IMG/VR virus record: IMGVR_UViG_3300020349_000003
Length of the DNA: 64,000 bases
From: a virus
Lineage: Duplodnaviria; Caudoviricetes
Strand: one strand, 5' to 3'
The notes beneath the pieces are model-generated. The model made no database searches. It saw only the letters and a list, made by a program, of their open reading frames with translations, and was not told the origin of the DNA. Below, piece by piece: positions 3,001 to 32,497 of this stretch. The translations under genes and the position numbers were made by a program. The first letter of the stretch is position 1, and every line of letters begins with the position of its first letter.

Positions 3001-6000
3001 CCATGTAGAACTAGACCCAGCTGGTTGATAACCATAGATCTTTGCCATATTATCAGCATAAGTTACGGCATTACTTCCTCCAACTGAAGTTAAAGTATAG
3101 TGACCTGTTAAATCTGTTTGCTCATTAGCAGCAAAATCAAAGATAAACTCATTTCTATTCCATTGAGTTTGACCAGAAAGGTAAATATCACCAGAATTAT
3201 CAGTATTACATGCATGAACAGTTATACCTTCAACACGTTTCTGATTAAATTCGTTGGTACTATGATTTTTAATCTTACCATCATATCCAATTTTAACTGA
3301 ATCTACAGTCTTAACACCAGTTGTAGTATTATGTCTACTAAATGCAAGGTTTAGATCTCCAAATATATCAATAGAACTCCTATCTGCCATAGTGATATCT
3401 CTACCAGGAGCAACATAACGATAATTCCAAAGTATAGTACCAGATGTATTAACTTTACCAACCCAGAAACTGTCTTTCTGTGCAGGATCAGACTTAAGTC
3501 TTAATGTAGCAGAAATATAGCACTCATTAAATTCATCAAATACAAGACTACCATCAACTAATGAATATACAGATGTGCTGTACTCTTTAATAAAGTCTAT
3601 GTTAATTGCACTAGTAGTTAAAGTCGCTTTACCAAATGCCATATTGACATCTGTAGTAGATTGATTTAATCCTACTTCCATTAAGAAGTATAATTCTGTA
3701 ACACCAGCAGTGGTCGTTATGACCTTCATATCTACAATCTTTTCAGACTTACTAGTAGATACAAGCTTTCTCTTAATAGCAAAATTACCAGTACTATCAA
3801 TAGATGCTAAGAATGCATCATATGGATTACTGGAGTTTGTATTAGTATAACCACCGATAATGAAACGAGTATCACTCCACTTCTGAATTGAAGACACATA
3901 GTCAGCACGAGTAGCACCAGAGATACCAGCATAACCTTTCTGGAACTGTAATCCAGCACTCAATCCATTTTCTGCCTGAGTATACTTAGCGAGTATAACA
4001 TCTGGATTATAATCATTAAGTAAAGTGCTATTTGGTTGATTATTACCAACTACCCAAACATCAAGACCATCTACATAAAGTTTTTGAAACTCTGTATAGA
4101 ATTGTCCATCAGTACTCTCTAAAGTATTCTCCCACTCTTTAACACCTGTAGCAGATAACTTAGAAACAAAACCTACTGTATTTCCAACAGCATCCTTTGT
4201 TTTACCACAAATAAAGATCTCTTTATTATCACTAACATAAGAATCATTAATCTTAACATAATTTTGATTTTCGATTTTAGAAAGATAATAATCTGCTTTC
4301 TTAAAGACCTGTGGATGAGATAATATAACACGAGGATTTGATGTATATCCAGAACCAGAATTTAAAATATTAACCGTATCAATTGCACCAACAGTTGATA
4401 CAACTGCTTCTAATTTTCCAGCACTACCATCACCATCAATTGTAATAGTTGGTGGAATATCTGTATTATATCCAGAACCTCTTTGATCAATAACAATCTC
4501 TTCTATACCTTTATATTGACGAACTACAAACGTTTTGTTTGTGTTCTGCATTATAGGAGTATAATCTATATAAACAACGTCACTAGCAACTAGATTATGA
4601 GGATCTGCTGTTTGTAAAACACCGTAGTTAGCACCACTAATATTCTCGAAACTATATGCAGCAACACTTTCACCCTTAATTTTTGAAATACGAGCAGATA
4701 CACCAGATCCATCAGTATCAGTATTATCAAATATTAATCTATCATCTACCTGATAATTCTTACCTGTGTTCTCAACAGTAAATCCAGTAACAGAAGCATC
4801 TTCAAATTTAGTTGTTGTCTCAACTTCAATATCAACTTTAGAGTCAAATTTAACTTTAGGGAAGTAATCAAATAACTGTAAAGGTGACTCTTCAAACATT
4901 TGATCAGGATCTGCAGTCTCTTCTGCACCTATAATACCATCTCTATTTTCATCTTCCACTTCAAACAACAAGATTTCTCCATCTTCAGTTGTTAAAGCAG
5001 CAGTAGAAGCATTGGGTGTTCTTTCAACATCAATATCAACATTTTCATATGGGTCTCTATAACGTACAACTCCAGTTGGTATATTCTGCTGAATTGCATT
5101 TGCACTAAGATTCCAAGAATCAACAACAGAGTTAAAACTTGGTCCTATAACATATGGGAATAATGGAGCACCTGCATCGGTAGCATCAATAGTAACAAAG
5201 TAGCAGTAGTTACCATTAGGAAAATCGGGGGTTTTACAGAAACGACCATTATACTGGTCTAAGTCACCTAATCCAAAACTATACTCATAGTCTTCCACAA
5301 AATTACCAGAAGGTTCTTCTGTTAATAAAGGACCAGCAGTTCTATTTGGATTGGGGTTAGTTGTATCATCATATACTAATTCATCCTTCAATTTGTATGA
5401 AGTTCTAAGTCTAACAGTAGCAGAACTTTGGTCAGTAGGATCATTGTATCCATAAGGACCATAAATTGGGTTACCATCAAATGCCCAACCGATAATTGGA
5501 GAGTGATTTAACTGCTCTTCTTGCTCAAGAATATTTCCTGTGCCAATTTCTTCATAAAGGTTATCACCAAGAATGTATCTCATTTTTTGTGGGTTTGATA
5601 GGTGAGCATATTCACCACCATACTCATTATTATAACCAGTAAATACAGAACCCTTAGCAGTGTCAAACTGTGAAGTTGCTTGAAGGTTGTAGTTCCATTG
5701 GAATACATTTGCAGTAAAGGTAGCATTTTGACCAACAGAAGTCAAATTGATAATGGTAGTACCTTGAACGTAGTTAATACCTTTGTTTACAATCTCAATA
5801 TTGGTTACTCTTCCAGCATTTTCACCATCTGTATCAATAGTTGCTCTTGCAATCGCACCAAATCCAACACCCTGAATAGATACTTCAGGTGCAGTAGTAT
5901 ATCCAGATCCAGCAGAAATGATAGCAATAGATATAATTCTACCATCATTAACAATGGCTTGTGCAACAGCACCTCTACCAGAACTTAATGTTACTGTAGG

Positions 6001-9000
6001 ACTAGAAGTATATTCTACACCACCATTATTAATACCAATTGACTGAATAGGTCCACGAACAGATGCAGTACCAGCAGCACCAGCACCTTCTCCACCAACA
6101 ATAGTAATAAGTGGTTGTGAAGTATATCCAGAACCACCTGAGTTGATTAGAATACGTGAAACTGACCCTTTGGTTATAATAGCAGTTGCAGCAGCACCAG
6201 AACCACCTCCTCCGACGATTGATACTAATGGGGAAGAAGTGAATCCAGAACCACCAGCAGTTACAGTAATTTCACTAAGAGAACCATTAACTATAACACT
6301 AGCAGTTGCACCTTCTCCACCACCACCTGTCATAGTAATCGCAGGAGGAGATGCAGCATCATACCCAGAACCAGCATTAGTGATACTAACATCGGTTACA
6401 GCACCAAAGGTTTTTGCTTCAGTTGACTTATAAGACCAAATTGATACACCATTAACCCAAGTACCTATCGGACCTGAAGTAATAGCATTCTTAGTTGAAA
6501 TAGTAGTAGGTATTTTAGGGAACCTATTTAATTTACGTTGGTTGCCTGGAAGAAGAGCAGAACCTGGGAAAGGTCCAATTTCATAGTTAGGAATACCTGT
6601 AGAGGCAACATAAACATAATCATCATTAAAGAATGAGTTTTGTATGTTTGTAGTATAAGGACTAACTGCATTATTAACAGCAGAATTAATAGATTTACCT
6701 TTGTTAAGGTCAACAGATACTAGAATATTACCTTGTGGTATAACAGTAGCAGGTTGAGGTAGATTATACTGGAAAATAACGTCGCTGTCCCTAGAAGTGA
6801 CTAAGAACGTTCCGTTATAGATGATTGGGTTAGCACCATAAATGGTAACTTGGTCTCCAACTAATAAACCATGAGGATTGACACAAGTTATAGTAGCAGA
6901 CTGATTATTAACACCACCGTAAGTTACAGTTGAAACATCGATTAATTTTTTAACGTTATACAACCAAGTAGTCAGATCTGGTCCACTACCAGTACCACCG
7001 AGCTTAGAAACTGTTAATTTGTCTCCAGGTAAGTAATAAGAACCAGTATCTGTTAATGTTGTTTGTTGAGCATCAACAATACCAACAATATTCATCACAA
7101 CTTCTTGAATTGTACCCTTATTAAGATATACTCTGAAATTAGATGTTACTTCAGTAGCAGAATCCCAATCTTCTTCAACACCATTAACTGAACGAGTACA
7201 TTCAATAAACTGGTTAAGTGATTTTTCTTTATACTGTACCAATTCAGATCCAGTACCAGTACCAATTATAAATTCACCGTTTCTTTCAGGCCAACCAATT
7301 GTAGAGTCAACTGTTATAATACCATCAGTTAAATTCAATGGTTCTGCAAGTTTAGTCTTATATGGAACTGTAAATGTACCATTAATAGTTTCTTCGGAAA
7401 GAACCAATTCGTATATTGTCTGTTCTGAAGTTTTAATTGAAATAAAGTTCTCAACAAGAGCACTTGCATCTTGAACATTACTATCTGCTATATCCCTATC
7501 TTGTATTAATAAAGCATCTTTTATATTACGAGAATCACCACTAACTAAAGTTGCCCGAAGAATTGTATCAATAGACCAAGTAGCAGCAGAAGGCTTAATT
7601 ATTTGGTCTTTTGGATATGAAATACTTACGGTTTCACCATATAGTAACTTAAAGAGGTATGCAATACTATAAGAAGTACCTTTAGATGAATAAAAGTCCT
7701 TAATAGTCTTAATTGAAGTTCTAACGTCTATTTGAGTATAATCTAGACTAGGTACATCAGGTAAGAACTGTTCTGTATACTTATCGAGTAATCTTTTAAT
7801 GAATAGAGCATCTAAACATTTAACAGTAGTATTTGTAGAAGCTGCAGCAGCTACAGTATCTCCTGAGAATACTGCATTACCATCTTCTGAATATTCTTTA
7901 ATTCCACTTGCTGCTCTAGCACATCCTACTAATTTTGCTTTACTATATCCAGCACCTTCCTGATTTACTGTAAATCCAGTAACTTCATTAAGTCCAACTG
8001 TAGCAGAAGCTTCTGCCGAAGGTGGTTGTTGAATAAAGATAGTTGGAGGTTCAGTTGCACTATACCCAGAACCAAAATTAGTTATATTAATATCAATAAT
8101 CTGACCATTGAAAATAGATGCAACAGCAGTAGCATTAGTACCACCAGCATAATTTCCTTGACCATCTAGTCTTTCGTCAACAATATAAACAGACGGAACA
8201 TCTTGATATCCACTACCACCACTCAAAAGTTCAATATTAGTTACTCTTCCATCACCATCAACTTGTGTTTGAAGGATCTGTGCTCCTGTTGGATCTATAA
8301 CAGCAACTCTAGGAGTTCCAGTATATCCTTGACCAGCATTTAATACATTTACACTAGTAAGCACACCATCAGTTAGAACTGCCTGTAATGATGCTCTAAT
8401 ACCATCTTCTTCAGTAGGTTCATCAATATAGATGATAGGAACAGTTGTATATCCAATACCACCATTACTTACAGTAATACCACCACTAATAGAACCATTA
8501 GATATCGTTGGAGGAGCAATTTGACCGCCTCCAGGCTGGGTAAAAGTAAGTCTAGGTGTGAATGTATACCCACTACCAGAATTAAGTATTTCTAAGTCAC
8601 TTACAGCACCATTTGTAACAGTTGCCTTTATCTTTGCTGTTGTAGAACCTGGTTTTGTAGGTGCTTGTACAGTAACTATGGGTGGGTTTGTATCACTATA
8701 TCCATATCCTCCATCAAGAAGAGATACACTCTTAGTACCATTAACTAATGCTGTAGCAGCAGCACCAGTACCAGTTGTTATCCTATCTTGTCCGATAGAA
8801 ACTTTTGGTGGATATTCAAACCTATAATCTTTACCGTTATTGGTTATAGATATCCCATTTACTCTTCCTAGACCATTAACACGTGCATATCCTATAGCAC
8901 CTGAACCGAAAGATGGAACTGGAGCTTCAACTGAGTAAAGAGATAAGAATCTACCATTTAGAGGTGCATTCTTAAATATAAACTGGTCTCCATCAAGGAA

Positions 9001-9795
9001 GAAATCATCACATGGGATAAGAAGCTCGTTATCGTATACTGCTAAAATATACTCATCTATAACAGGTTCGTATGGAACACCATCTCTTGTTATAGTGAAT
9101 TGACGCTTACCTTCACCAAAACTATTTGATATATTATCAATTGGAACAATATTACTCTCAACAAAACCACTCAAGTATGTAATAAAGGTTAAATCTGCAC
9201 CATCAGCATCGAGTTTTGTTCTAGGGGCAGATGTAAAGATTACATCAGTACCATCTACAGTATAATCGATATTAGGAACTAAAACTTCACCATAAGACTG
9301 CACAATTAAATGTTGTGCAGAAGGTGGAGCTACAGGATTATTCTGAGAAGTTAACGGAAAACTTGTACGAGATCCATCAAATAATGTTATAGGATTTGCA
9401 AGACCCAACCACTTTAATTTAACCTGTTCGTATGAAATACCTGGACTTAAAGCAATATGGGGTGAATGGCTTATGGATTCATAGTAAATTACTTCATCAC
9501 CAATCAATATAGATCCATCGCTCTCTAAAAATGGGTCTACAGTCTCTACTACTATCGTATCATCAGTCAATCCAAGAGGTTCTACTAGCTTCGATGCACC
9601 ATCAAGTATTCCTATATCCAGTTTATCAATATCTAGATATTGAAGGAAATTATTTAAAATATTTTGTCCTAGACCAGTTTTTTCCTGAGATCTATAATAA
9701 AATTCAATGAATTTATTAAAGAGAGGATACTCATCCTCGATAAACGCTGGAGTCAGTGACTTGACTGACTGGGATACTTTATTGATATTTGCCAT
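1..9795 (-). CDS. gp7: Giant baseplate wedge protein (gp7-like), 3'-truncated by window edge, >3265 aa
   Basis: Not in the ORF track. ATG at 9795 (MANINKVSQSVKSLTPAFIEDEYPLFNKFIEFYYRSQE), 5 nt after the gp6 stop. Same frame open at spot checks at 9001, 6001 and 1-30 (FNYVVNLDLG). Many GxGY-xxxP-x-V repeats. Position after gp25-gp6 matches T4-like cyanophage synteny. Confidence 0.8.
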   Translation of the reverse strand, partial: MANINKVSQSVKSLTPAFIEDEYPLFNKFIEFYYRSQEKTGLGQNILNNFLQYLDIDKLDIGILDGASKLVEPLGLTDDTIVVETVDPFLESDGSILIGDEVIYYESISHSPHIALSPGISYEQVKLKWLGLANPITLFDGSRTSFPLTSQNNPVAPPSAQHLIVQSYGEVLVPNIDYTVDGTDVIFTSAPRTKLDADGADLTFITYLSGFVESNIVPIDNISNSFGEGKRQFTITRDGVPYEPVIDEYILAVYDNELLIPCDDFFLDGDQFIFKNAPLNGRFLSLYSVEAPVPSFGSGAIGYARVNGLGRVNGISITNNGKDYRFEYPPKVSIGQDRITTGTGAAATALVNGTKSVSLLDGGYGYSDTNPPIVTVQAPTKPGSTTAKIKATVTNGAVSDLEILNSGSGYTFTPRLTFTQPGGGQIAPPTISNGSISGGITVSNGGIGYTTVPIIYIDEPTEEDGIRASLQAVLTDGVLTSVNVLNAGQGYTGTPRVAVIDPTGAQILQTQVDGDGRVTNIELLSGGSGYQDVPSVYIVDERLDGQGNYAGGTNATAVASIFNGQIIDINITNFGSGYSATEPPTIFIQQPPSAEASATVGLNEVTGFTVNQEGAGYSKAKLVGCARAASGIKEYSEDGNAVFSGDTVAAAASTNTTVKCLDALFIKRLLDKYTEQFLPDVPSLDYTQIDVRTSIKTIKDFYSSKGTSYSIAYLFKLLYGETVSISYPKDQIIKPSAATWSIDTILRATLVSGDSRNIKDALLIQDRDIADSNVQDASALVENFISIKTSEQTIYELVLSEETINGTFTVPYKTKLAEPLNLTDGIITVDSTIGWPERNGEFIIGTGTGSELVQYKEKSLNQFIECTRSVNGVEEDWDSATEVTSNFRVYLNKGTIQEVVMNIVGIVDAQQTTLTDTGSYYLPGDKLTVSKLGGTGSGPDLTTWLYNVKKLIDVSTVTYGGVNNQSATITCVNPHGLLVGDQVTIYGANPIIYNGTFLVTSRDSDVIFQYNLPQPATVIPQGNILVSVDLNKGKSINSAVNNAVSPYTTNIQNSFFNDDYVYVASTGIPNYEIGPFPGSALLPGNQRKLNRFPKIPTTISTKNAITSGPIGTWVNGVSIWSYKSTEAKTFGAVTDVSITNAGSGYDAASPPAITMTGGGGEGATASVIVNGSLSEITVTAGGSGFTSSPLVSIVGGGGSGAAATAIITKGSVSRILINSGGSGYTSQPLITIVGGEGAGAAGTASVRGPIQSIGINNGGVEYTSSPTVTLSSGRGAVAQAIVNDGRIISIAIISAGSGYTTAPEVSIQGVGFGAIARATIDTDGENAGRVTNIEIVNKGINYVQGTTIINLTSVGQNATFTANVFQWNYNLQATSQFDTAKGSVFTGYNNEYGGEYAHLSNPQKMRYILGDNLYEEIGTGNILEQEEQLNHSPIIGWAFDGNPIYGPYGYNDPTDQSSATVRLRTSYKLKDELVYDDTTNPNPNRTAGPLLTEEPSGNFVEDYEYSFGLGDLDQYNGRFCKTPDFPNGNYCYFVTIDATDAGAPLFPYVIGPSFNSVVDSWNLSANAIQQNIPTGVVRYRDPYENVDIDVERTPNASTAALTTEDGEILLFEVEDENRDGIIGAEETADPDQMFEESPLQLFDYFPKVKFDSKVDIEVETTTKFEDASVTGFTVENTGKNYQVDDRLIFDNTDTDGSGVSARISKIKGESVAAYSFENISGANYGVLQTADPHNLVASDVVYIDYTPIMQNTNKTFVVRQYKGIEEIVIDQRGSGYNTDIPPTITIDGDGSAGKLEAVVSTVGAIDTVNILNSGSGYTSNPRVILSHPQVFKKADYYLSKIENQNYVKINDSYVSDNKEIFICGKTKDAVGNTVGFVSKLSATGVKEWENTLESTDGQFYTEFQKLYVDGLDVWVVGNNQPNSTLLNDYNPDVILAKYTQAENGLSAGLQFQKGYAGISGATRADYVSSIQKWSDTRFIIGGYTNTNSSNPYDAFLASIDSTGNFAIKRKLVSTSKSEKIVDMKVITTTAGVTELYFLMEVGLNQSTTDVNMAFGKATLTTSAINIDFIKEYSTSVYSLVDGSLVFDEFNECYISATLRLKSDPAQKDSFWVGKVNTSGTILWNYRYVAPGRDITMADRSSIDIFGDLNLAFSRHNTTTGVKTVDSVKIGYDGKIKNHSTNEFNQKRVEGITVHACNTDNSGDIYLSGQTQWNRNEFIFDFAANEQTDLTGHYTLTSVGGSNAVTYADNMAKIYGYQPAGSSSTWENSYLKVSGTDLATTLANDWTLEFFIYKSASASQTLSQGAQTLMGIGGAQDATGGLWLGYDNSTGELQMVVTNNTTALNAGSGISSSQTTMYADNSWQTIAVRKEGNIFKVFVNAIEVITGTLANTALGAKDLYFGNQIGFGSGASDFSQSKQGQFFIDNIRLRNRSVTPTVPSDISSLPPVASFAFAFAWTDTAWFTNNLTKYDYIDYNGWNLKVDKNADATRLGDKGLQTNTQLGFVRTEVTPLTGSSLVIGEADFALGDAGLQTLDFDDATITMTPGTETLTYTNDIWSSRTATVPSPGSQKLQVSAVVKDRYFFKVTNTIKIDNIQELTINQPFIFTTGSKLRLNNLSTGSFINSGYIIKSDIPNRKIYIAVQNNTWSDDLNNGILVSEQFDEQDTYGIVGPVPNDTNEMKAYTFAQVDNTTPGTFDIDMSTYDAPANIGGTNNLDDFARFKPFNVGDYSVRIDEIGGSSSFIVGSVVSLTSNDISFNANYNTCQITNLVGVTKITLISNLERILQVTAVNNSDEVYVITGTSHYLSPGEIVYVDGNPSQTNGGLVYDEYDGAFAIDTVVSPLEFTYKLPQTAITAPATNASTVGIFVKSPTLKMYYGHQYIFDLGHSTLEGGNLSFAKDNLYKLEYSFNSIERIGTPGLTGQGQPSPSVKLKVDNDIVTNISYYFDPSRTGSDSPVISDSYLDVTDSPYTGTFTISSTSGQTITRGADVFKFPLLNEPEGVGDISRTSYTTSSLKAVGAIGDIRIINPGGFYTKLPIVTGIGSTRKIERVQITEPGTEYAVGTYNGVPIGGDGEGGFVQITVADGQDDEGITIPGQIQQVLVTSPGKGYTSATIDVEGVSGILGSGLTGSGADLVVVIPPFGTEASIFTKGDKVGKIKKLKNNNFGYDYPHDYTLRPEITFPLNAQLTSTSILESITVTNPGSGYSLAPTVVITGGGGSGATAEATIKNGRLDVIEVKDPGAGYSSTPAVSLRSSFNYVVNLDLG

Positions 9796-27127: not shown

Positions 27128-27185
27128 ATTATACATCATTCAGCAGTGTTGTCAGTGGGTTGTGTGCCTCTTTGTCAGTTGGCAC
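27128..27185 (-). promoter_or_regulatory. Early promoter with palindrome, inside the methylase 3' end
   Basis: TATAAT 27128-33; GTGCCT-N10-TGGCAC 27164-85. Confidence 0.7.
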
Positions 27186-28091
27186 ATGGTATTCTCTCAC
27201 TCTCTCCTCTATTAAATGACCATAATCCTCATGCAATTCACACCCTAAGTAATACCTACCTAATGATTTTGCCACTGCTGCTGTTGTACCACTACCCATA
27301 AATGGGTCGAGTACAATATCATTTAGTGCTGAACCTGCTTTGATACATGGTTCAATTAATTCAGGTGGGAAAGTAGCAAAATGAGCACCCTTATATGGTT
27401 TCTTAGTTATACTCCATACACTACGTTTGTTCTTTGTTGGATATGATTTAGTGAGACCAGTATGAGGTGATAAACCTGTACCTTCATTGTGATATTTGCC
27501 TTTAGATCTATCACGAGTTCCCCAATCTTTAGCAGGTTCTTTAATAGAATCATTATCATAATAGTAGTTCTTATTCTTACTTAAGAGGAAGATATACTCA
27601 TGTGCTTTTGTACATCTATCTCTTACACTTTCGGGCATTGGGTTAGGTTTATGCCATATAATATCTTGCCTTAAGTACCATCCATCTGCCCTCAATGCAA
27701 ATGCCAACATCCAAGGAATACCAATTAAATCTTTCTCTTTATATCCTTTTAGTTTGTTAGATCTACGAGGTGTAGTTACAGGTAAATCTTGTCTATTATT
27801 AGAGAATGTTTGTTTAGGGATACATCCATCTTTCCTATAATTATAATAACTATCACCAATATTCAACCACAATGTACCATCATCAGTCAATACATTTCTA
27901 ACTTCTCTGAACACATTAACCATCTCGTTAACATATTCTTCTGGTGATTGTTCTTGTCCTATTTGATTGTCTTCTCCTCCATAATCTCTTAGTCCGTAAT
28001 ATGGTGGTGATGTTACACACATCCTCGCACTATTTGGTAAGAACGCTGATAACGTCTTACGACAATCTCCAAATAAAATTGTGTCTTTCAT
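27129..28091 (-). CDS. DNA N4-C/N6-A methyltransferase, beta class
   Basis: TSPPYY (motif IV) precedes HFATFP...VLDPFMGSGTT (motif I); start MKDTILFGD. Confidence 0.93.
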   Translation of the reverse strand: MKDTILFGDCRKTLSAFLPNSARMCVTSPPYYGLRDYGGEDNQIGQEQSPEEYVNEMVNVFREVRNVLTDDGTLWLNIGDSYYNYRKDGCIPKQTFSNNRQDLPVTTPRRSNKLKGYKEKDLIGIPWMLAFALRADGWYLRQDIIWHKPNPMPESVRDRCTKAHEYIFLLSKNKNYYYDNDSIKEPAKDWGTRDRSKGKYHNEGTGLSPHTGLTKSYPTKNKRSVWSITKKPYKGAHFATFPPELIEPCIKAGSALNDIVLDPFMGSGTTAAVAKSLGRYYLGCELHEDYGHLIEERVREYHVPTDKEAHNPLTTLLNDV

Positions 28092-28097
28092 GTGCCT

Positions 28098-28135
28098 ATT
28101 ATACATTAAAAAAGAGGGTTTTGCAACCCTCTTTT
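28098..28135 (-). promoter_or_regulatory. Promoter TTGCAA-N17-TATAAT overlapped by a terminator hairpin
   Basis: -10 28098-103, -35 28121-26; AAAAGAGGGTT/AACCCTCTTTT inverted repeat 28110-35. Confidence 0.7.
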
Positions 28136-28155
28136 ACGCAATTTGTCATTTAGTC

Positions 28156-28317
28156 CTATACCATAAGTATTTCCTTACATACCCTCCTACAACTAGATTG
28201 ACTGTCCTCACAATCTATTAAACATTCAAAATAGTCATCTAATAATTCTTCTTCTTGTGTAGGAACTACACTATGGTTCCACGATGCCATTTGATTGTGG
28301 GATATTGACCTGGACAT
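28156..28317 (-). CDS. Small four-Cys protein, 53 aa
   Basis: Read by eye: MSRSISHNQMASW...DDYFECLIDCEDSQSSCRRVCKEILMV; GGAGGT Shine-Dalgarno. Confidence 0.8.
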   Translation of the reverse strand: MSRSISHNQMASWNHSVVPTQEEELLDDYFECLIDCEDSQSSCRRVCKEILMV

Positions 28318-28394
28318 AAATTAACCTCCATCTAACATTGTTTTCATAATAAATAACGGTTTTGGTTACATCTTGTGCCTTAATTCTACGTTAC

Positions 28395-28402
28395 TATTTA
28401 TA
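28395..28402 (-). promoter_or_regulatory. T4 late promoter TATAAATA
   Basis: Perfect consensus, intergenic. Confidence 0.65.
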
Positions 28403-28430
28403 CTTGTGTTATGATATTCACACGTATTAG

Positions 28431-29069
28431 TTAATACAATTTAACCCAATTTCTATCTTCAAAGTAATCATCTGCGTCATAAGTTCTATGATTTGCTAAT
28501 GGGAAACTTACAGATAATCTAACTGTATTAGATGTTGCTTTATGAGGATAATTCTTTGGTATCCATATTGTATCTCCTGGTTTCATATTAACATCTATAA
28601 TTGGTTCATCTTTAATATCCATTAAGTATCTTTGTTGTCTAGTATCTGTTACTTCATCCCACACTTTCCAATTAGTTTCACCTTCACATTGAACTATAAC
28701 ATTATCATTATAGTCAAAATGTGTACCAAAATGATGTTTAATAGATGTATTCATACAGATATAAATGTGTGCATCTGCCTGTAATCTATACTCCTTCTCT
28801 ATCATTTTAGCGAACTCATTTATCTTCTTAGTAGATCTCGACATGTCTGCAATAAAGACAATATAGTTATCTAACACCTCCCTAATTAATGAAGGTGGTA
28901 AACAACTATAGTCTTTAGTCCATTCAGTATTTTGCCATTTAAGACCAGGTTCGTCACCCAATATATTAACTCTACTGGCAGACATTAATGGTCTTATGTT
29001 AATTAAATACTCTAATTCTTTCCAACTAAAAAGACTATCCCAATACGATTGTTCATAATGTGGTTTCAT
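28431..29069 (-). CDS. JmjC/cupin 2OG-Fe(II) oxygenase
   Basis: HFD...VIVQCEGETNWKVW...MKPGDTIWIPKNYPH (HxD...H triad). Confidence 0.85.
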   Translation of the reverse strand: MKPHYEQSYWDSLFSWKELEYLINIRPLMSASRVNILGDEPGLKWQNTEWTKDYSCLPPSLIREVLDNYIVFIADMSRSTKKINEFAKMIEKEYRLQADAHIYICMNTSIKHHFGTHFDYNDNVIVQCEGETNWKVWDEVTDTRQQRYLMDIKDEPIIDVNMKPGDTIWIPKNYPHKATSNTVRLSVSFPLANHRTYDADDYFEDRNWVKLY

Positions 29070-29609: not shown

Positions 29610-29775
29610 AACCAAAACCTCGGTTGCTAATTTGTCTTGTTTTTTCCCTCTCATTCAATAGTTTTTGAAGAGAGGTCTTTAGTTTGATGAGTTCTTCATC
29701 ATTGTAAAGATGTGACTGCTTAAGTGCCTTTCGGATGTACTTAATTTGCAGTTTGTCGGAGAAGAATTTCCTCAT
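29602..29775 (-). CDS. Small basic hypothetical protein, 57 aa
   Basis: Read by eye: MRKFFSDKLQIKYIRKALKQSHLYNDEEL...RGFGYD. Confidence 0.65.
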   Translation of the reverse strand: MRKFFSDKLQIKYIRKALKQSHLYNDEELIKLKTSLQKLLNEREKTRQISNRGFGYD

Positions 29776-30329
29776 GCCTTTAGTATAAGAGATTGAATAG
29801 GATTTGTGGTCAGATCTTGTGACACTTTATTGAATGGCACATACAATGTACCATACTTACCAAATACTTCATTGAAGTGGGTAATATCATCACCAAGATA
29901 TATTATAGCAGATTGAAATGGTGATGCACTCTTAGCATCACCAAATCTCATGCGTTTGTTAATAGCAATCCAAGGATAATTGCAACATGATTTCCACCAT
30001 TTAGTAGATACATCTAGTTTAATTAATAACACTAACTCCTTAGCATTTCCCTGTTCATATTGTGATACAGCGTATGGAATCCATTCCTTACTATTACTAT
30101 AAGGATGATTAACAAACACTTTACCATGCCATTTATGTAATAAACCATCATCACTTTCATCATAATAGTTATTAGCAGGTACATTAGGATTGTCCTTACT
30201 ATTACAACATGGGTCGAGGTCAATCGTACCAAAGAACTTAACAACATCTCCTACAAAATCAGTAGGAGTGTTCCATTTATCAGTACGATTACCAGTCGTT
30301 TGTGTTAATGCTTGAAGAGCAGTTGTCAT
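29772..30329 (-). CDS. Phage DNA N6-adenine methyltransferase (phage Dam family)
   Basis: DKWNTP...IDLDPC...DDGL...W.GKVFVNHPYS...RMRF; motif IV reads NHPY. Confidence 0.85.
   Translation of the reverse strand: MTTALQALTQTTGNRTDKWNTPTDFVGDVVKFFGTIDLDPCCNSKDNPNVPANNYYDESDDGLLHKWHGKVFVNHPYSNSKEWIPYAVSQYEQGNAKELVLLIKLDVSTKWWKSCCNYPWIAINKRMRFGDAKSASPFQSAIIYLGDDITHFNEVFGKYGTLYVPFNKVSQDLTTNPIQSLILKA
29782..29840 (-). promoter_or_regulatory. Early promoter with palindrome, inside the Dam-like gene 3' end
   Basis: TATACT 29782-87; GTGACA-N10-TGGCAC 29819-40. Confidence 0.75.
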
Positions 30330-31334
30330 TTAATCAATAACTAAATTGTATTTTTTAAGTAATTCTTCACCTATAGATGTAGAATTAGGGTCATCATTAT
30401 GTTCTTTAATGATACGCAATGCACCAACAATTCCTGTTGTAGAACCAGAGATACCTTCATACCATGTAGTTCTCTTTTTAAGGATTAACTTGTTATCAAT
30501 GTAATCATTGATAGATACTAACTTCTCTTTAGCACCACCTCCTATCTTAGCATCTTTAATGAATTTGTAAAGTGTTGATAGAATAATAACCATATCACTA
30601 CGAATAGCAGTTACTATTTTCTTTTGATTCTTTGGTTGTCTCCAATTCTGGTGTTCTTGTAGTTGAACTAACTTAGCACATGCCTTAGATACTATGGATA
30701 CACCAAATTTGTTAATTGCTTGCCTCCATTGATACTCTCCAGTCATGGGACATCCTGATTCATCACCAAGATAATCATATCCATCAATGTAAACACCACA
30801 TTCAACTAGATTATCATTATATTTAACAGCATCAGGCAATCCAAATGCCAAACCTGCTTTCATTTTATCTACATGAGTTGGGTCTTTACGATTGTTATTT
30901 AAAGCATAGAATATTGCTGCTTCTATTTCTATACAATCATCAAGAGATCTATGTGGGGGATGTTCAATAAAAAGACATGGAAGAAGTTCGGGATCACCTC
31001 CTTCTGTTGCTGCTAGGTCTAATATTGCTGTATGTTGTCCATCAACATCAACAAGTTTGCCATTAGGTCTAATTGCAACAATTAAAGGTCTTGCAAAGTG
31101 TCTTTGAAAACTTCCATAAATGTTGAGTTGTAGAGTTGAAATTAATCGTTGTACTCTACGAGATACAAATAATTTTCGAGGGTCTACTTGACCTGCTTTT
31201 AACCAATCACCAAAAATTCCTTTTTCAATTTTTAGTTTTGATTTTATGTCATTAAAAATCGAGGTCAACGACACTAAGTCATCATCCTCGTCATTAAAAT
31301 CTTCTGGACCTTCTAGGTACGGTATAGTTGTCAT
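30330..31334 (-). CDS. ParB/DGQH(R)-superfamily-like protein
   Basis: VQRLIS...RPLIVAIRPNGKLVDVDGQHT...EAAIFYALN. Confidence 0.65.
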   Translation of the reverse strand: MTTIPYLEGPEDFNDEDDDLVSLTSIFNDIKSKLKIEKGIFGDWLKAGQVDPRKLFVSRRVQRLISTLQLNIYGSFQRHFARPLIVAIRPNGKLVDVDGQHTAILDLAATEGGDPELLPCLFIEHPPHRSLDDCIEIEAAIFYALNNNRKDPTHVDKMKAGLAFGLPDAVKYNDNLVECGVYIDGYDYLGDESGCPMTGEYQWRQAINKFGVSIVSKACAKLVQLQEHQNWRQPKNQKKIVTAIRSDMVIILSTLYKFIKDAKIGGGAKEKLVSINDYIDNKLILKKRTTWYEGISGSTTGIVGALRIIKEHNDDPNSTSIGEELLKKYNLVID

Positions 31335-31405
31335 ATTCGTGACTATGTAAACGGTTGGGTCGTTAGTTTAATGACGTGGAACAATTTCCTTTGCGGTCAG
31401 TAGTA

Positions 31406-31434
31406 ATTATATAAGATAAATCAAAAAATGTCAA
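31406..31434 (-). promoter_or_regulatory. Consensus sigma70 promoter
   Basis: Perfect TTGACA-N17-TATAAT upstream of the DGQH and methylase genes; no palindrome. Confidence 0.8.
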
Positions 31435-31459
31435 TAATATTATAAATCTTCAACATTTC

Positions 31460-32068
31460 TTAATCAAATAATAACTTCTCAAACTTTGTTGTTAGATAAA
31501 ATCCCATGTACTTATTCTTTAGTTGCTGACCATTATATACTAATGGAGTGTACTTACCTGTTTTCTTATTCGGACTTGCTTTAGTTCTAATTTGTAATAG
31601 TTTGTTAACTCCATTCTTATCTCTAGGTCCATTAAATGTTCTTAATTGTTCACCATTATTATATGCTGAACGAACACAATCACTAATGTAATCCCAATCT
31701 TCAGATAATTTATCAAATATCAAAGGATGTGTATATCTATTGAAAATAAGATCTCTATCAAACTTATCGTCTTTAGTGAATCTAATAAACCAGCAATTAC
31801 TTAACTTTGTAAATACTTTACTCTGTTTAAATGATACTCCATTAATCAGTTCATCTAAAACATGTAATAATTGAGTAACAGCAATAGTTTGTCTTGATTT
31901 AAATGATTTACCTTCACCATCATCAAAATCAAGTAGACCAGAGCATAAGTCTTTACCTAATAGTTGTTCAAGTTCTTGTCCTCTCTTGCCTTTGTTTTTA
32001 CCATCATAGTTAGGTATCAAACTTTTATCAAGAGAGTCAAACTTAGATTTCGCTTCTCGAAGTAACAT
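31460..32068 (-). CDS. MutH/Sau3AI-family PD-(D/E)xK endonuclease
   Basis: NKGKRGQELEQLLG...LDF.DGEGKS, SKVFTKL, LSEDWDYI, LLQIRTKAS, GFYLTTKF match MutH-family blocks; start probably MLLREAK. Confidence 0.8.
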   Translation of the reverse strand: MLLREAKSKFDSLDKSLIPNYDGKNKGKRGQELEQLLGKDLCSGLLDFDDGEGKSFKSRQTIAVTQLLHVLDELINGVSFKQSKVFTKLSNCWFIRFTKDDKFDRDLIFNRYTHPLIFDKLSEDWDYISDCVRSAYNNGEQLRTFNGPRDKNGVNKLLQIRTKASPNKKTGKYTPLVYNGQQLKNKYMGFYLTTKFEKLLFD

Positions 32069-32087
32069 GACAATAATAAAATAGCTA

Positions 32088-32243
32088 GCGGATGTTAGTT
32101 CTTTCTTCGGTTGCGAACCGAGAGGCACATCCATCTCCTCGTTAATAGGTGAGCGAAAACAAAACTGAGAGACATTGCATTACCCCAACAGTCATGTGAC
32201 TGCTTCTAAGTCAGTCTAGTCGGGAACTCGTTTGTTTTCGCTT
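32088..32243 (-). ncRNA. Structured 5' leader / candidate ncRNA
   Basis: 12-bp perfect stem 32152-63/32231-42 enclosing inner helices; second hairpin GGATGT/ACATCC 32090-132; begins at the predicted TSS. Confidence 0.6.
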
Positions 32244-32247
32244 CTCT

Positions 32248-32304
32248 ATTATAATAGATCTCGTTGCCTTGTGTCAACTAGGTGGACAGTTTACTCACTG
32301 CCAT
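32248..32304 (-). promoter_or_regulatory. Early promoter with degenerate palindrome
   Basis: TTGACA (32272-77)-N18-TATAAT (32248-53); TGGACA-N10-TGCCAT 32283-304. Confidence 0.75.
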
Positions 32305-32497
32305 ATCCTAAATGCAATTTCTGTATCATACCCTCAAGTTGATACCTCACCTCCTGATATGCTTCAGCAGTTAGTATCTTCTCTTTCTTTGCTTTAACTT
32401 CCAACTCTTTAATATATGATAAGAAAGCATCTTTTAACAGTTGTTTCTCTCTATCATTTAATAGTATGCACTCAGGCAATTCGATGTCCATCGTCAA
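32291..32497 (-). CDS. Hypothetical protein
   Basis: 68 aa ORF, coupled. Confidence 0.65.
   Translation of the reverse strand: MTMDIELPECILLNDREKQLLKDAFLSYIKELEVKAKKEKILTAEAYQEVRYQLEGMIQKLHLGYGSE

Follow-up and report, generated by a model that had tools for sequence, protein, structure and literature searches.

The 64,000-nucleotide stretch of viral DNA considered here, referred to as the window (IMG/VR virus record IMGVR_UViG_3300020349_000003; Duplodnaviria, Caudoviricetes), derives from an uncultured T4-like cyanomyovirus whose structural genes share ~73% DNA identity with S-SSM5 and P-RSM4. Its early, hyperplastic region encodes a leader RNA, a MutH-like nuclease, a ParB-like protein, and an adenine DNA methylase, and this locus is best explained as a composite of three separable things. 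These are a phage-borne nuclease-methylase pair that resembles a restriction-modification (RM) system, a self-promoted cassette of the ParB-like and methylase genes, and a generic leader RNA. We hold this reading with confidence somewhat better than even. Matches of the locus itself to cultured phages are limited to two short non-coding pieces. Its features, in the direction of transcription, are:

32248..32277, minus strand: sigma-70-type promoter TTGACA-18-TATAAT, 12/12 match, for transcription of the leader RNA and nuclease gene
32147..32246, minus strand: RNA module 1, a ~100-nt 5'-terminal three-helix hairpin (80.8 bits with covariance model R1)
32090..32141, minus strand: RNA module 2, a conserved hairpin and the source of a spurious N-terminal extension of the nuclease reading frame
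31460..32068, minus strand: gene 1, predicted MutH/Sau3AI-fold endonuclease, most likely 202 residues, phrog_15364; the frame as first read reaches 32134
31406..31434, minus strand: perfect promoter TTGACA-17-TATAAT, 12/12 match, serving the ParB-like/methylase pair
30330..31334, minus strand: gene 2, ParB/Srx-fold protein, 334 residues, phrog_2558, DGQHT motif, apparent divergent relative of DUF6551
29772..30329, minus strand: gene 3, PF05869-type N6-adenine DNA methyltransferase, 185 residues, NHPY variant of motif IV

An earlier annotation of the same DNA, made from the letters and their open reading frames (ORFs) alone, had proposed three consecutive co-oriented genes, with a perfect promoter for the last two. 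Both descriptions of this original prediction hold: the ORFs (31460-32134, 30330-31334, and 29772-30329) all run in the same direction on the minus strand, and the two consensus promoters (32277-32248 and 31434-31406) are confirmed in the sequence, each at 12/12. The ATG of gene 3 abuts the TAA stop codon of gene 2 without a gap. Profile hidden Markov model searches of all three proteins and structure prediction for genes 1 and 2, checks of a kind suggested at that stage, confirm the gene identities.

The assignment of gene 1 as a stand-alone MutH/Sau3AI-like nuclease is borne out by its predicted fold. An AlphaFold (AF2) model built on 18 homologues is confident (predicted local distance difference test score, pLDDT, 87.8; predicted template modeling score, pTM, 0.84). 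In a Foldseek search, MutH and Sau3AI account for every one of its top 10 matches in the Protein Data Bank (PDB) (E 1e-6 to 1e-3, probability ~1), with the MutH entries 2aor and 2azo first, at E 1e-6, and Sau3AI following at E 2e-4. These matches include 2aor_B (E 1.4e-6), 2azo, 4pxg (Sau3AI), and 7xm0, with template modeling scores of 0.56-0.61, and the first unrelated fold in the list appears at E ~0.1. The model thus places the gene 1 product in the MutH/Sau3AI fold. Sequence searches of Pfam, PADLOC, and the PDB returned nothing decisive for gene 1.

The nuclease family profile aligns with E. coli MutH end to end, over residues 22 to 198. This match to the PDB sequence has an E-value of 1.2 alone and was used for residue mapping only, after the fold match and with a +3 offset in chain numbering corrected. 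E34, D47, E52, and K54 map to the MutH catalytic residues E56, D70, E77, and K79, so that the E...D...ExK signature recognized at the outset is indeed intact; D47, E52, and K54 are invariant in the 18 homologues, and E34 is nearly so. In addition, R161, K163, and Y191, which are conserved in the family, map to MutH R184, K186, and Y212, residues that line the pocket sensing N6-methyladenine in GATC. Because both the catalytic and the adenine-pocket residues are conserved, the nuclease is very probably active and plausibly methyl-sensitive. Recognition of GATC would be in keeping with family membership, with the aligned R161/K163/Y191, and with the adenine methyltransferases that accompany this enzyme.

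MutH and Dam form the strand-discrimination pair of enterobacterial mismatch repair, and the MutH-like nuclease and Dam-type methylase could, as in E. coli, serve methyl-directed mismatch repair using the MutS and MutL of the host. The combination is familiar from enterobacteria, and one GenBank record names a homologue of the nuclease 'DNA mismatch repair protein MutH' (H13). Nevertheless, the NCBIfam MutH model NF003458 scores the window nuclease at 18.2 bits (E 0.001) against an equivalog cut-off of 243, neither MutS nor MutL turned up near the loci examined, and the activation of MutH requires a co-evolved MutL. The nuclease family is also almost confined to viruses, and cyanobacteria are not known to have MutH-type repair. 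A repair function is consequently very improbable.

Gene linkage in other phages argues for an RM-like pair. Relatives of the nuclease were found in 158 viral loci, of which 80 were examined, with neighbors typed by means of seed sequences:

PF05869-type methylase directly downstream of the MutH-like gene, mostly overlapping: 18/80 loci
D12 (Dam-class) methylase adjoining the MutH-like gene, same strand: 4/80 loci
D12 methylase adjoining the MutH-like gene, opposite strand: 5/80 loci
MutH-like gene, then ParB-like gene, then methylase: 5/80 loci
no methylase adjoining the MutH-like gene: 47/80 loci
no MutH-like ORF typed, match at the contig end: 1/80 loci

An adenine methyltransferase therefore adjoins the nuclease gene in 32 of the 80 loci, including the five in which a ParB-like gene intervenes. 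When the loci are collapsed to 37 sequence clusters, 24 of these lineages adjoin an adenine methyltransferase from either of two unrelated families, and the link between nuclease and methylase is non-random. Such pairing, which recurs independently of orientation and with two unrelated families, constitutes the signature of an RM pair. Cultured phages display the same association: S-RIM8 has a D12 methyltransferase followed by the MutH-like gene and no ParB-like gene, and in S-IOM18 the order is ParB-like, D12 methyltransferase, MutH-like. Only two MutH-like relatives were found in 185,579 species genomes, both in bacteria, and both abut a D12 methylase. In the cyanobacterium Raphidiopsis brookii D9 (L261, 4001-4983), there is only a C-terminal MutH-like remnant (residues 138-200 matched), with an intact D12 methylase directly after it; it may represent a decayed restriction gene beside a surviving methylase.

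These linkages must be weighed against the possibility that the genes have no functional link. The methylases and their ParB-like helper would then be ordinary anti-restriction 'orphan' enzymes, and the MutH-like protein an independent nuclease acting in host DNA breakdown, recombination, or replication priming, with the genes brought together by the variable early region upstream of the helicase. No methyltransferase adjoins the nuclease in 13 of the 37 lineages. Many of the unlinked loci adjoin instead a gene for a DUF6267 protein, and six contigs of this kind carry a ParB-D12 pair at a distance of 13-20 kb. S-CAM7 likewise encodes a MutH-like protein alone, with its D12 methyltransferase 32 kb off. 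Moreover, every cyanomyovirus checked has methyltransferases in this region, with or without the nuclease, and all those checked encode a D12 enzyme, which makes co-occurrence at the level of whole genomes uninformative. The strong avoidance of several palindromes is consistent with host restriction pressure. In contrast, a shared region alone is hard to invoke for an adjacency that recurs with two unrelated methyltransferase families and in both orientations, often with overlapping stop and start codons, and that extends to two non-viral relatives. The residues with which MutH reads the adenine N6 position are, furthermore, invariant in the nuclease family. We regard the absence of a functional link as rather unlikely.

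As a separate observation, in another phage lineage a DUF6267/phrog_455 protein precedes the MutH-like gene in place of a methylase, at L157 (3969-4868) and at ~40 related loci.

The ParB-like gene shows the tighter coupling. In each of 17 viral loci (17/17), the gene after it encodes an adenine methylase of one family or the other, usually with an overlap of 4 bp, and this order is kept in S-IOM18 and S-RIM2. All 9 loci with the order MutH-like, ParB-like, methyltransferase have a promoter at 11-12/12 consensus just before the ParB-like gene, and the promoter originally reported for the pair at 31434-31406 thus recurs at 8 related loci. ParB-like and methyltransferase genes occur without a MutH-like gene in S-RIM2, where the methyltransferase is of the D12 type, and in two metagenomic loci (L247 and L259); MutH-like and methyltransferase genes occur without a ParB-like gene in S-RIM8 and 18 viral loci. 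Because the ParB-like gene is always followed by a methyltransferase gene, the MutH-like gene often lies beside one, and each is found without the other, the methylase is the hub to which the nuclease and the ParB-like protein are separately tied.

The original prediction was of a different kind: leader, nuclease, ParB-like protein, and methylase were to form one system, in which the folded leader delays translation of the nuclease until the DNA has been modified. Close relatives (L126 and L127) do keep the order of RNA, MutH-like gene, promoter, ParB-like gene, and methyltransferase, and module 2 is able to sequester a GAGG beside an ATG. That ATG, however, is not the nuclease start. In 18 loci without the leader, the nuclease is translated first from a single operon, its gene overlapping the start of the methylase gene, and a delay in nuclease translation finds no support. 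Co-occurrence across cyanophage and metagenomic contigs, proposed as a check with independent occurrence of the genes as the refuting outcome, gives a divided answer: the link between nuclease and methyltransferase is kept, whereas the three-gene unit dissolves, the ParB-like and MutH-like genes being separable and the latter standing alone in the 13 lineages mentioned above. Together with the distribution of the leader described next, these results make a single integrated system improbable.

The leader (~32069-32246) consists of two independent covarying RNA modules, both revealed by DNA pieces that the window has in common with P-SSM7 and P-SSM2. Module 1 is closed by a long stem and contains a 7-bp helix as well as a 5-bp hairpin, the loop of which reads ACUUAGAAG without variation; the module begins 1-3 nt past the predicted transcription start, shortly after the -10 box in every case. 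Across 29 distinct examples from IMG/VR and cultured cyanophages, its 12 core pairs are 99.1% paired, as opposed to 30-44% when the 3' partners are slid, and six of the 12 have double-sided changes. RNAalifold recovers the same two helices, and the long closing stem also shows compensatory changes. In module 2, the outer stem of 6 bp is invariant and the inner stem of 5 bp covaries, and the module also includes GAGGAG/ATG; in 13 distinct copies, four of the five inner-stem pairs covary. It is the covariation of base pairs that identifies the leader as structured, not its folding energy: the minimum free energy is unremarkable relative to shuffled sequences (z -0.5), and a thermodynamic argument was rejected on that account. 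ARAGORN found no tRNA or tmRNA here. A switch between two inner helices of module 1 is not supported by covariation either, since the covarying A/U position of the 3' strand finds its partner in the 5' strand (18 UA, 11 AU) and the alternative partner column is an invariant A.

Regarding distribution, the leader does not follow the nuclease. Of 84 other loci, only 2, both from the close lineage of the window itself, have module 1 upstream of a MutH-like gene; elsewhere it precedes genes for an N6_N4 methylase, a basic protein, a zinc-ribbon protein, and several proteins of no assigned type. Module 2 stands at ~92-100% DNA identity ahead of unrelated genes, including a copy in P-SSM2 with ~92% nucleotide identity, and is present twice in one contig. 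In all, at least eight unrelated genes of other cyanophages have a leader module in front of them. The 175-nt folded leader of the earlier annotation is thus structured, as claimed, but it is two generic modules and not a single fold specific to the nuclease. The leader is real, and because its modules mostly precede unrelated genes, it is not part of the nuclease system. Module 1 occurs once each in the window, P-SSM7, P-SSM2, and a 202-kb contig, and a covariance-model search did not detect it in S-IOM18 or S-RIM8. A search of Rfam 15 produced no gathering-score match for the window or for any of 11 related loci; even at E<=10, the interval 31900-32400 yielded nothing of relevance, and the ~220-nt RNAs that embed module 1 likewise gave no match.

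Several further observations concern these RNAs. In the relatives L091, L098, and L104, module 1 lies directly ahead of the N6_N4 methylase gene. Module 1 is also found embedded in larger conserved structured RNAs of ~220-280 nt that are closed by a GUUGAGAGG/CCUCUCAAC stem right after the promoter (L208 ~8800-9090, L210, L212, L214-L218, L223, L224, and L231). A third conserved RNA piece, GCAAGGAUCUAUGGUUGUCUC...GUCCUGUAAGUCC, occurs at differing positions inside or beside module 1 (L002 ~5090-5150, L019, L122, and L221) and resembles a mobile sub-module. The promoter of the leader and nuclease contains a GATC within its spacer (32257-32260). The close relative L019/L126 shares this GATC, which could render the promoter methylation-sensitive.

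The modules also bear on the start of gene 1. The nuclease homologues are mostly ~200 residues long and begin at M23 of the ORF as originally read, whose first 22 codons fall within the 52 nt of module 2. In 8 of 17 other contexts, the frame from the module 2 ATG closes before the following gene is reached, and the inner stem shows covariation. Taken together, the homologue lengths, the often closed frame, and the covarying stem make the ATG at 32068 the most likely start of the nuclease, which then has 202 residues, and the N-terminal extension 'MDVPLGSQPKKELTS' was rejected as protein. Database entries for this nuclease propagate ~22 spurious N-terminal codons.

Gene 2 was originally read as a 334-residue ParB/DGQHR-like protein with a VDGQHT motif, and structure supports this description. 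Its model (pLDDT 81) contains a ParB/Srx-fold domain at residues 43-152, which Foldseek matches to Noc/ParB with a probability of 0.96-1.0 and which, in structure comparison, gives Z-scores (VIA) of 9.5 for PadC (96 residues, root-mean-square deviation 2.6), 8.4 for both pNOB8 ParB-N and KorB, and 7.9 for sulfiredoxin. The C-terminal half is helical, with no clear structural match. Sequence searches of Pfam (E<=0.1), PADLOC, and the PDB found no match for this protein. A profile search recovers 410 related clusters among 1.8 billion representatives, and 27 of 46 distant relatives match DUF6551 (PF20188), the best at 5e-28. The S-RIM2 homologue matches DUF6551 below the cut-off (E 2.7e-4), the window protein has no match at E<=0.1, and the Atlas offers no more than a lead. 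By this chain of relatives the window protein appears to be a divergent relative of DUF6551. The P-motif reads DGQHT in the window, DGQHK in relatives of 40% identity, and DGQHR in the consensus of distant relatives. Phage DUF6551 proteins bind CTP or ATP, and fusions of the ParB fold to methyltransferases are frequent in phages (PMC12704722). PSSM2_067 was considered as a homologue of the ParB-like protein and rejected. In the 5' untranslated region of the gene (window 31335-31405, minus strand), downstream of the consensus promoter, lies a conserved motif GACCGCAA..GUC..UAAACUAACGA that is common to several lineages (L126, L246, L255, and L174).

The third gene, predicted to encode a phage Dam-type methylase starting immediately after the gene 2 stop, is confirmed as such: its product matches Pfam PF05869 at 70.4 bits, with a gathering score of 28.1, and the phrog_111 DNA methyltransferase family at 2.4e-33. 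Its motif IV reads NHPY, which is present in all 23 of 23 nuclease-linked PF05869 homologues and is therefore a variant maintained by selection; the variant is presumed to be an active methylase. Non-specific methylases of the Hia5 type (PMC3299994) were rejected as a guide to the specificity of PF05869 enzymes, since these enzymes are members of another family, in which motif IV lies around residue 194.

On the composite reading, the methylase would mark phage DNA, probably at GATC, and the MutH-fold nuclease would cut or nick unmarked DNA, be it the host chromosome or a co-infecting unmarked phage. The nuclease may accordingly serve nucleotide scavenging and host shut-off, or exclusion. The ParB-like protein would belong with the methylase rather than with the nuclease, in a self-promoted, translationally coupled cassette; it probably binds DNA and may load, target, or regulate the methylase as a split version of phage ParB-methylase fusions. 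The leader would combine two generic 5'-leader modules of cyanophages, which are carried along with a strong early promoter and are not particular to this gene. The 64-kb window contains 138 GATC sites, and because of this number the phage requires self-protection if the nuclease reads GATC.

A number of points weigh against the RM-like reading, in addition to the unlinked lineages, their DUF6267 neighbors, and the ubiquity of D12 enzymes considered above. At hemimethylated sites, E. coli MutH nicks the strand that lacks the methyl group; the same activity on newly replicated, hemimethylated phage DNA would be self-damaging, unless the window enzyme behaves differently. The nuclease has no Pfam MutH match at E<=0.1, and the partner methyltransferase families that point to GATC also include non-GATC enzymes. 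The methylase scores below the TIGR01712 NCBIfam equivalog cut-off, and its NHPY replaces the usual (D/N)PPY, or more broadly the canonical motif IV (D/N/S)PP(Y/F). Finally, the ParB-like protein carries Thr at the position of the GERR/DGQHR Arg, which a 2025 survey describes as necessary for NTP binding in the ParB fold (PMC12704722).

Two features of the wider window may be added. The avoidance of palindromes is extreme over window 1-64000, with CCGG, CGCG, and GCGC each absent (expected 25, 7, and 14), and AGCT, GATC, and TGCA present at 0.30, 0.54, and 0.60 of the Markov expectation. In addition, the early region that holds the locus contains genes for a second methylase (N6_N4, PF01555, 200 bits) and for a protein resembling JmjC/cupin 2-oxoglutarate (2OG)-oxygenases (27129-29069, minus strand).

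Cyanomyoviruses kill a large share of marine picocyanobacteria, and the locus bears on how they distinguish their own DNA from that of the host and recycle host nucleotides. A nuclease of MutH type that is widespread, virus-specific, and linked to adenine methylases is a concrete candidate for host DNA degradation. The invariable order of ParB-like gene and methylase extends the known fusions of ParB fold and methylase to split, translationally coupled pairs, and the pair offers a simple system in which to ask what a ParB fold does for a methylase. The leader modules, which covary, are absent from Rfam, and stand on strong early promoters, are good candidates for new phage RNA motifs.

A more ambitious proposal can be put forward tentatively. 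T4 contains hydroxymethylcytosine (hmC) and shuts off its host by means of EndoII-EndoIV. T4-like cyanophages, which lack hmC, might instead mark themselves by adenine methylation, with a ParB-like NTP-switch protein loading a Dam-type methylase onto phage DNA, and destroy unmarked DNA of the host or of rival phages with the virus-specific MutH-type nuclease. If true, the locus would represent a functional analogue of T4 hmC/EndoII-EndoIV host shutoff built from mismatch-repair and partition parts. The two leader modules might, as a separate matter, be the first members of a family of regulatory RNAs at the 5' ends of cyanophage transcripts, each acting with a particular protein or RNA as partner.

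In the literature, no description was found of a cyanophage MutH-like nuclease, of the ParB-like/methylase pair, or of the leader RNA motifs. Comparison with known systems relates the parts to established kinds. The nuclease resembles E. coli MutH and Sau3AI in whole-protein fold, in its E...D...ExK residues, and in its C-terminal QIR-K and FY motifs, and it has the size of single-domain MutH. Unlike these enzymes, it is viral, falls below the Pfam and NCBIfam thresholds, has no MutS or MutL nearby, and usually lies beside an adenine methylase. It also lacks the second, effector domain of Sau3AI, whose partner is a C5 methylase. Type II RM systems are known from viruses, for example the chlorovirus GATC system CviAI. 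As in these systems, a lytic virus carries adjoining genes for a nuclease and an adenine methylase, in the window via the ParB-like gene, and host DNA degradation is the proposed use. The cyanophage systems differ in their MutH-like nuclease, in a methylase swapped between two families, and in an optional ParB-like gene between the two, and the match of specificities is presumed.

The ParB-like protein shares with the phage fusions of ParB-CTPase fold and methyltransferase, and with DUF6551, a ParB/Srx fold, a probable DUF6551 kinship by way of distant relatives, and an obligate association with a methylase (PMC12704722). In contrast to those fusions, it is encoded by a separate gene coupled to PF05869 or D12 enzymes and is not fused to an N6_N4 or Methyltransf_23 domain; the Arg-to-Thr change in its P-motif sets it apart from both. 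The methylase agrees with PF05869 phage Dam enzymes in its clear Pfam match, small size, and usual order of DxDPC and motif IV, and departs from them in its NHPY motif and its sub-threshold TIGR01712 score. T4-type phages reportedly carry promoter-early-stem-loop (PeSL) cassettes, said to have been described by Arbiol and colleagues in 2010. Like PeSL, the leader joins an early sigma-70 promoter to an immediate stem-loop and is common to unrelated genes of the hyperplastic region. PeSL elements flank variable ORFs in many copies per genome, whereas module 1, ~100 nt long with invariant loops and covarying helices, is a single-copy element in all three of the complete genomes in which it occurs, which points to a specific RNA function rather than that of a simple repeated recombination cassette. 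The parts of the locus belong to known kinds, and their combination and the RNA modules are new variations.

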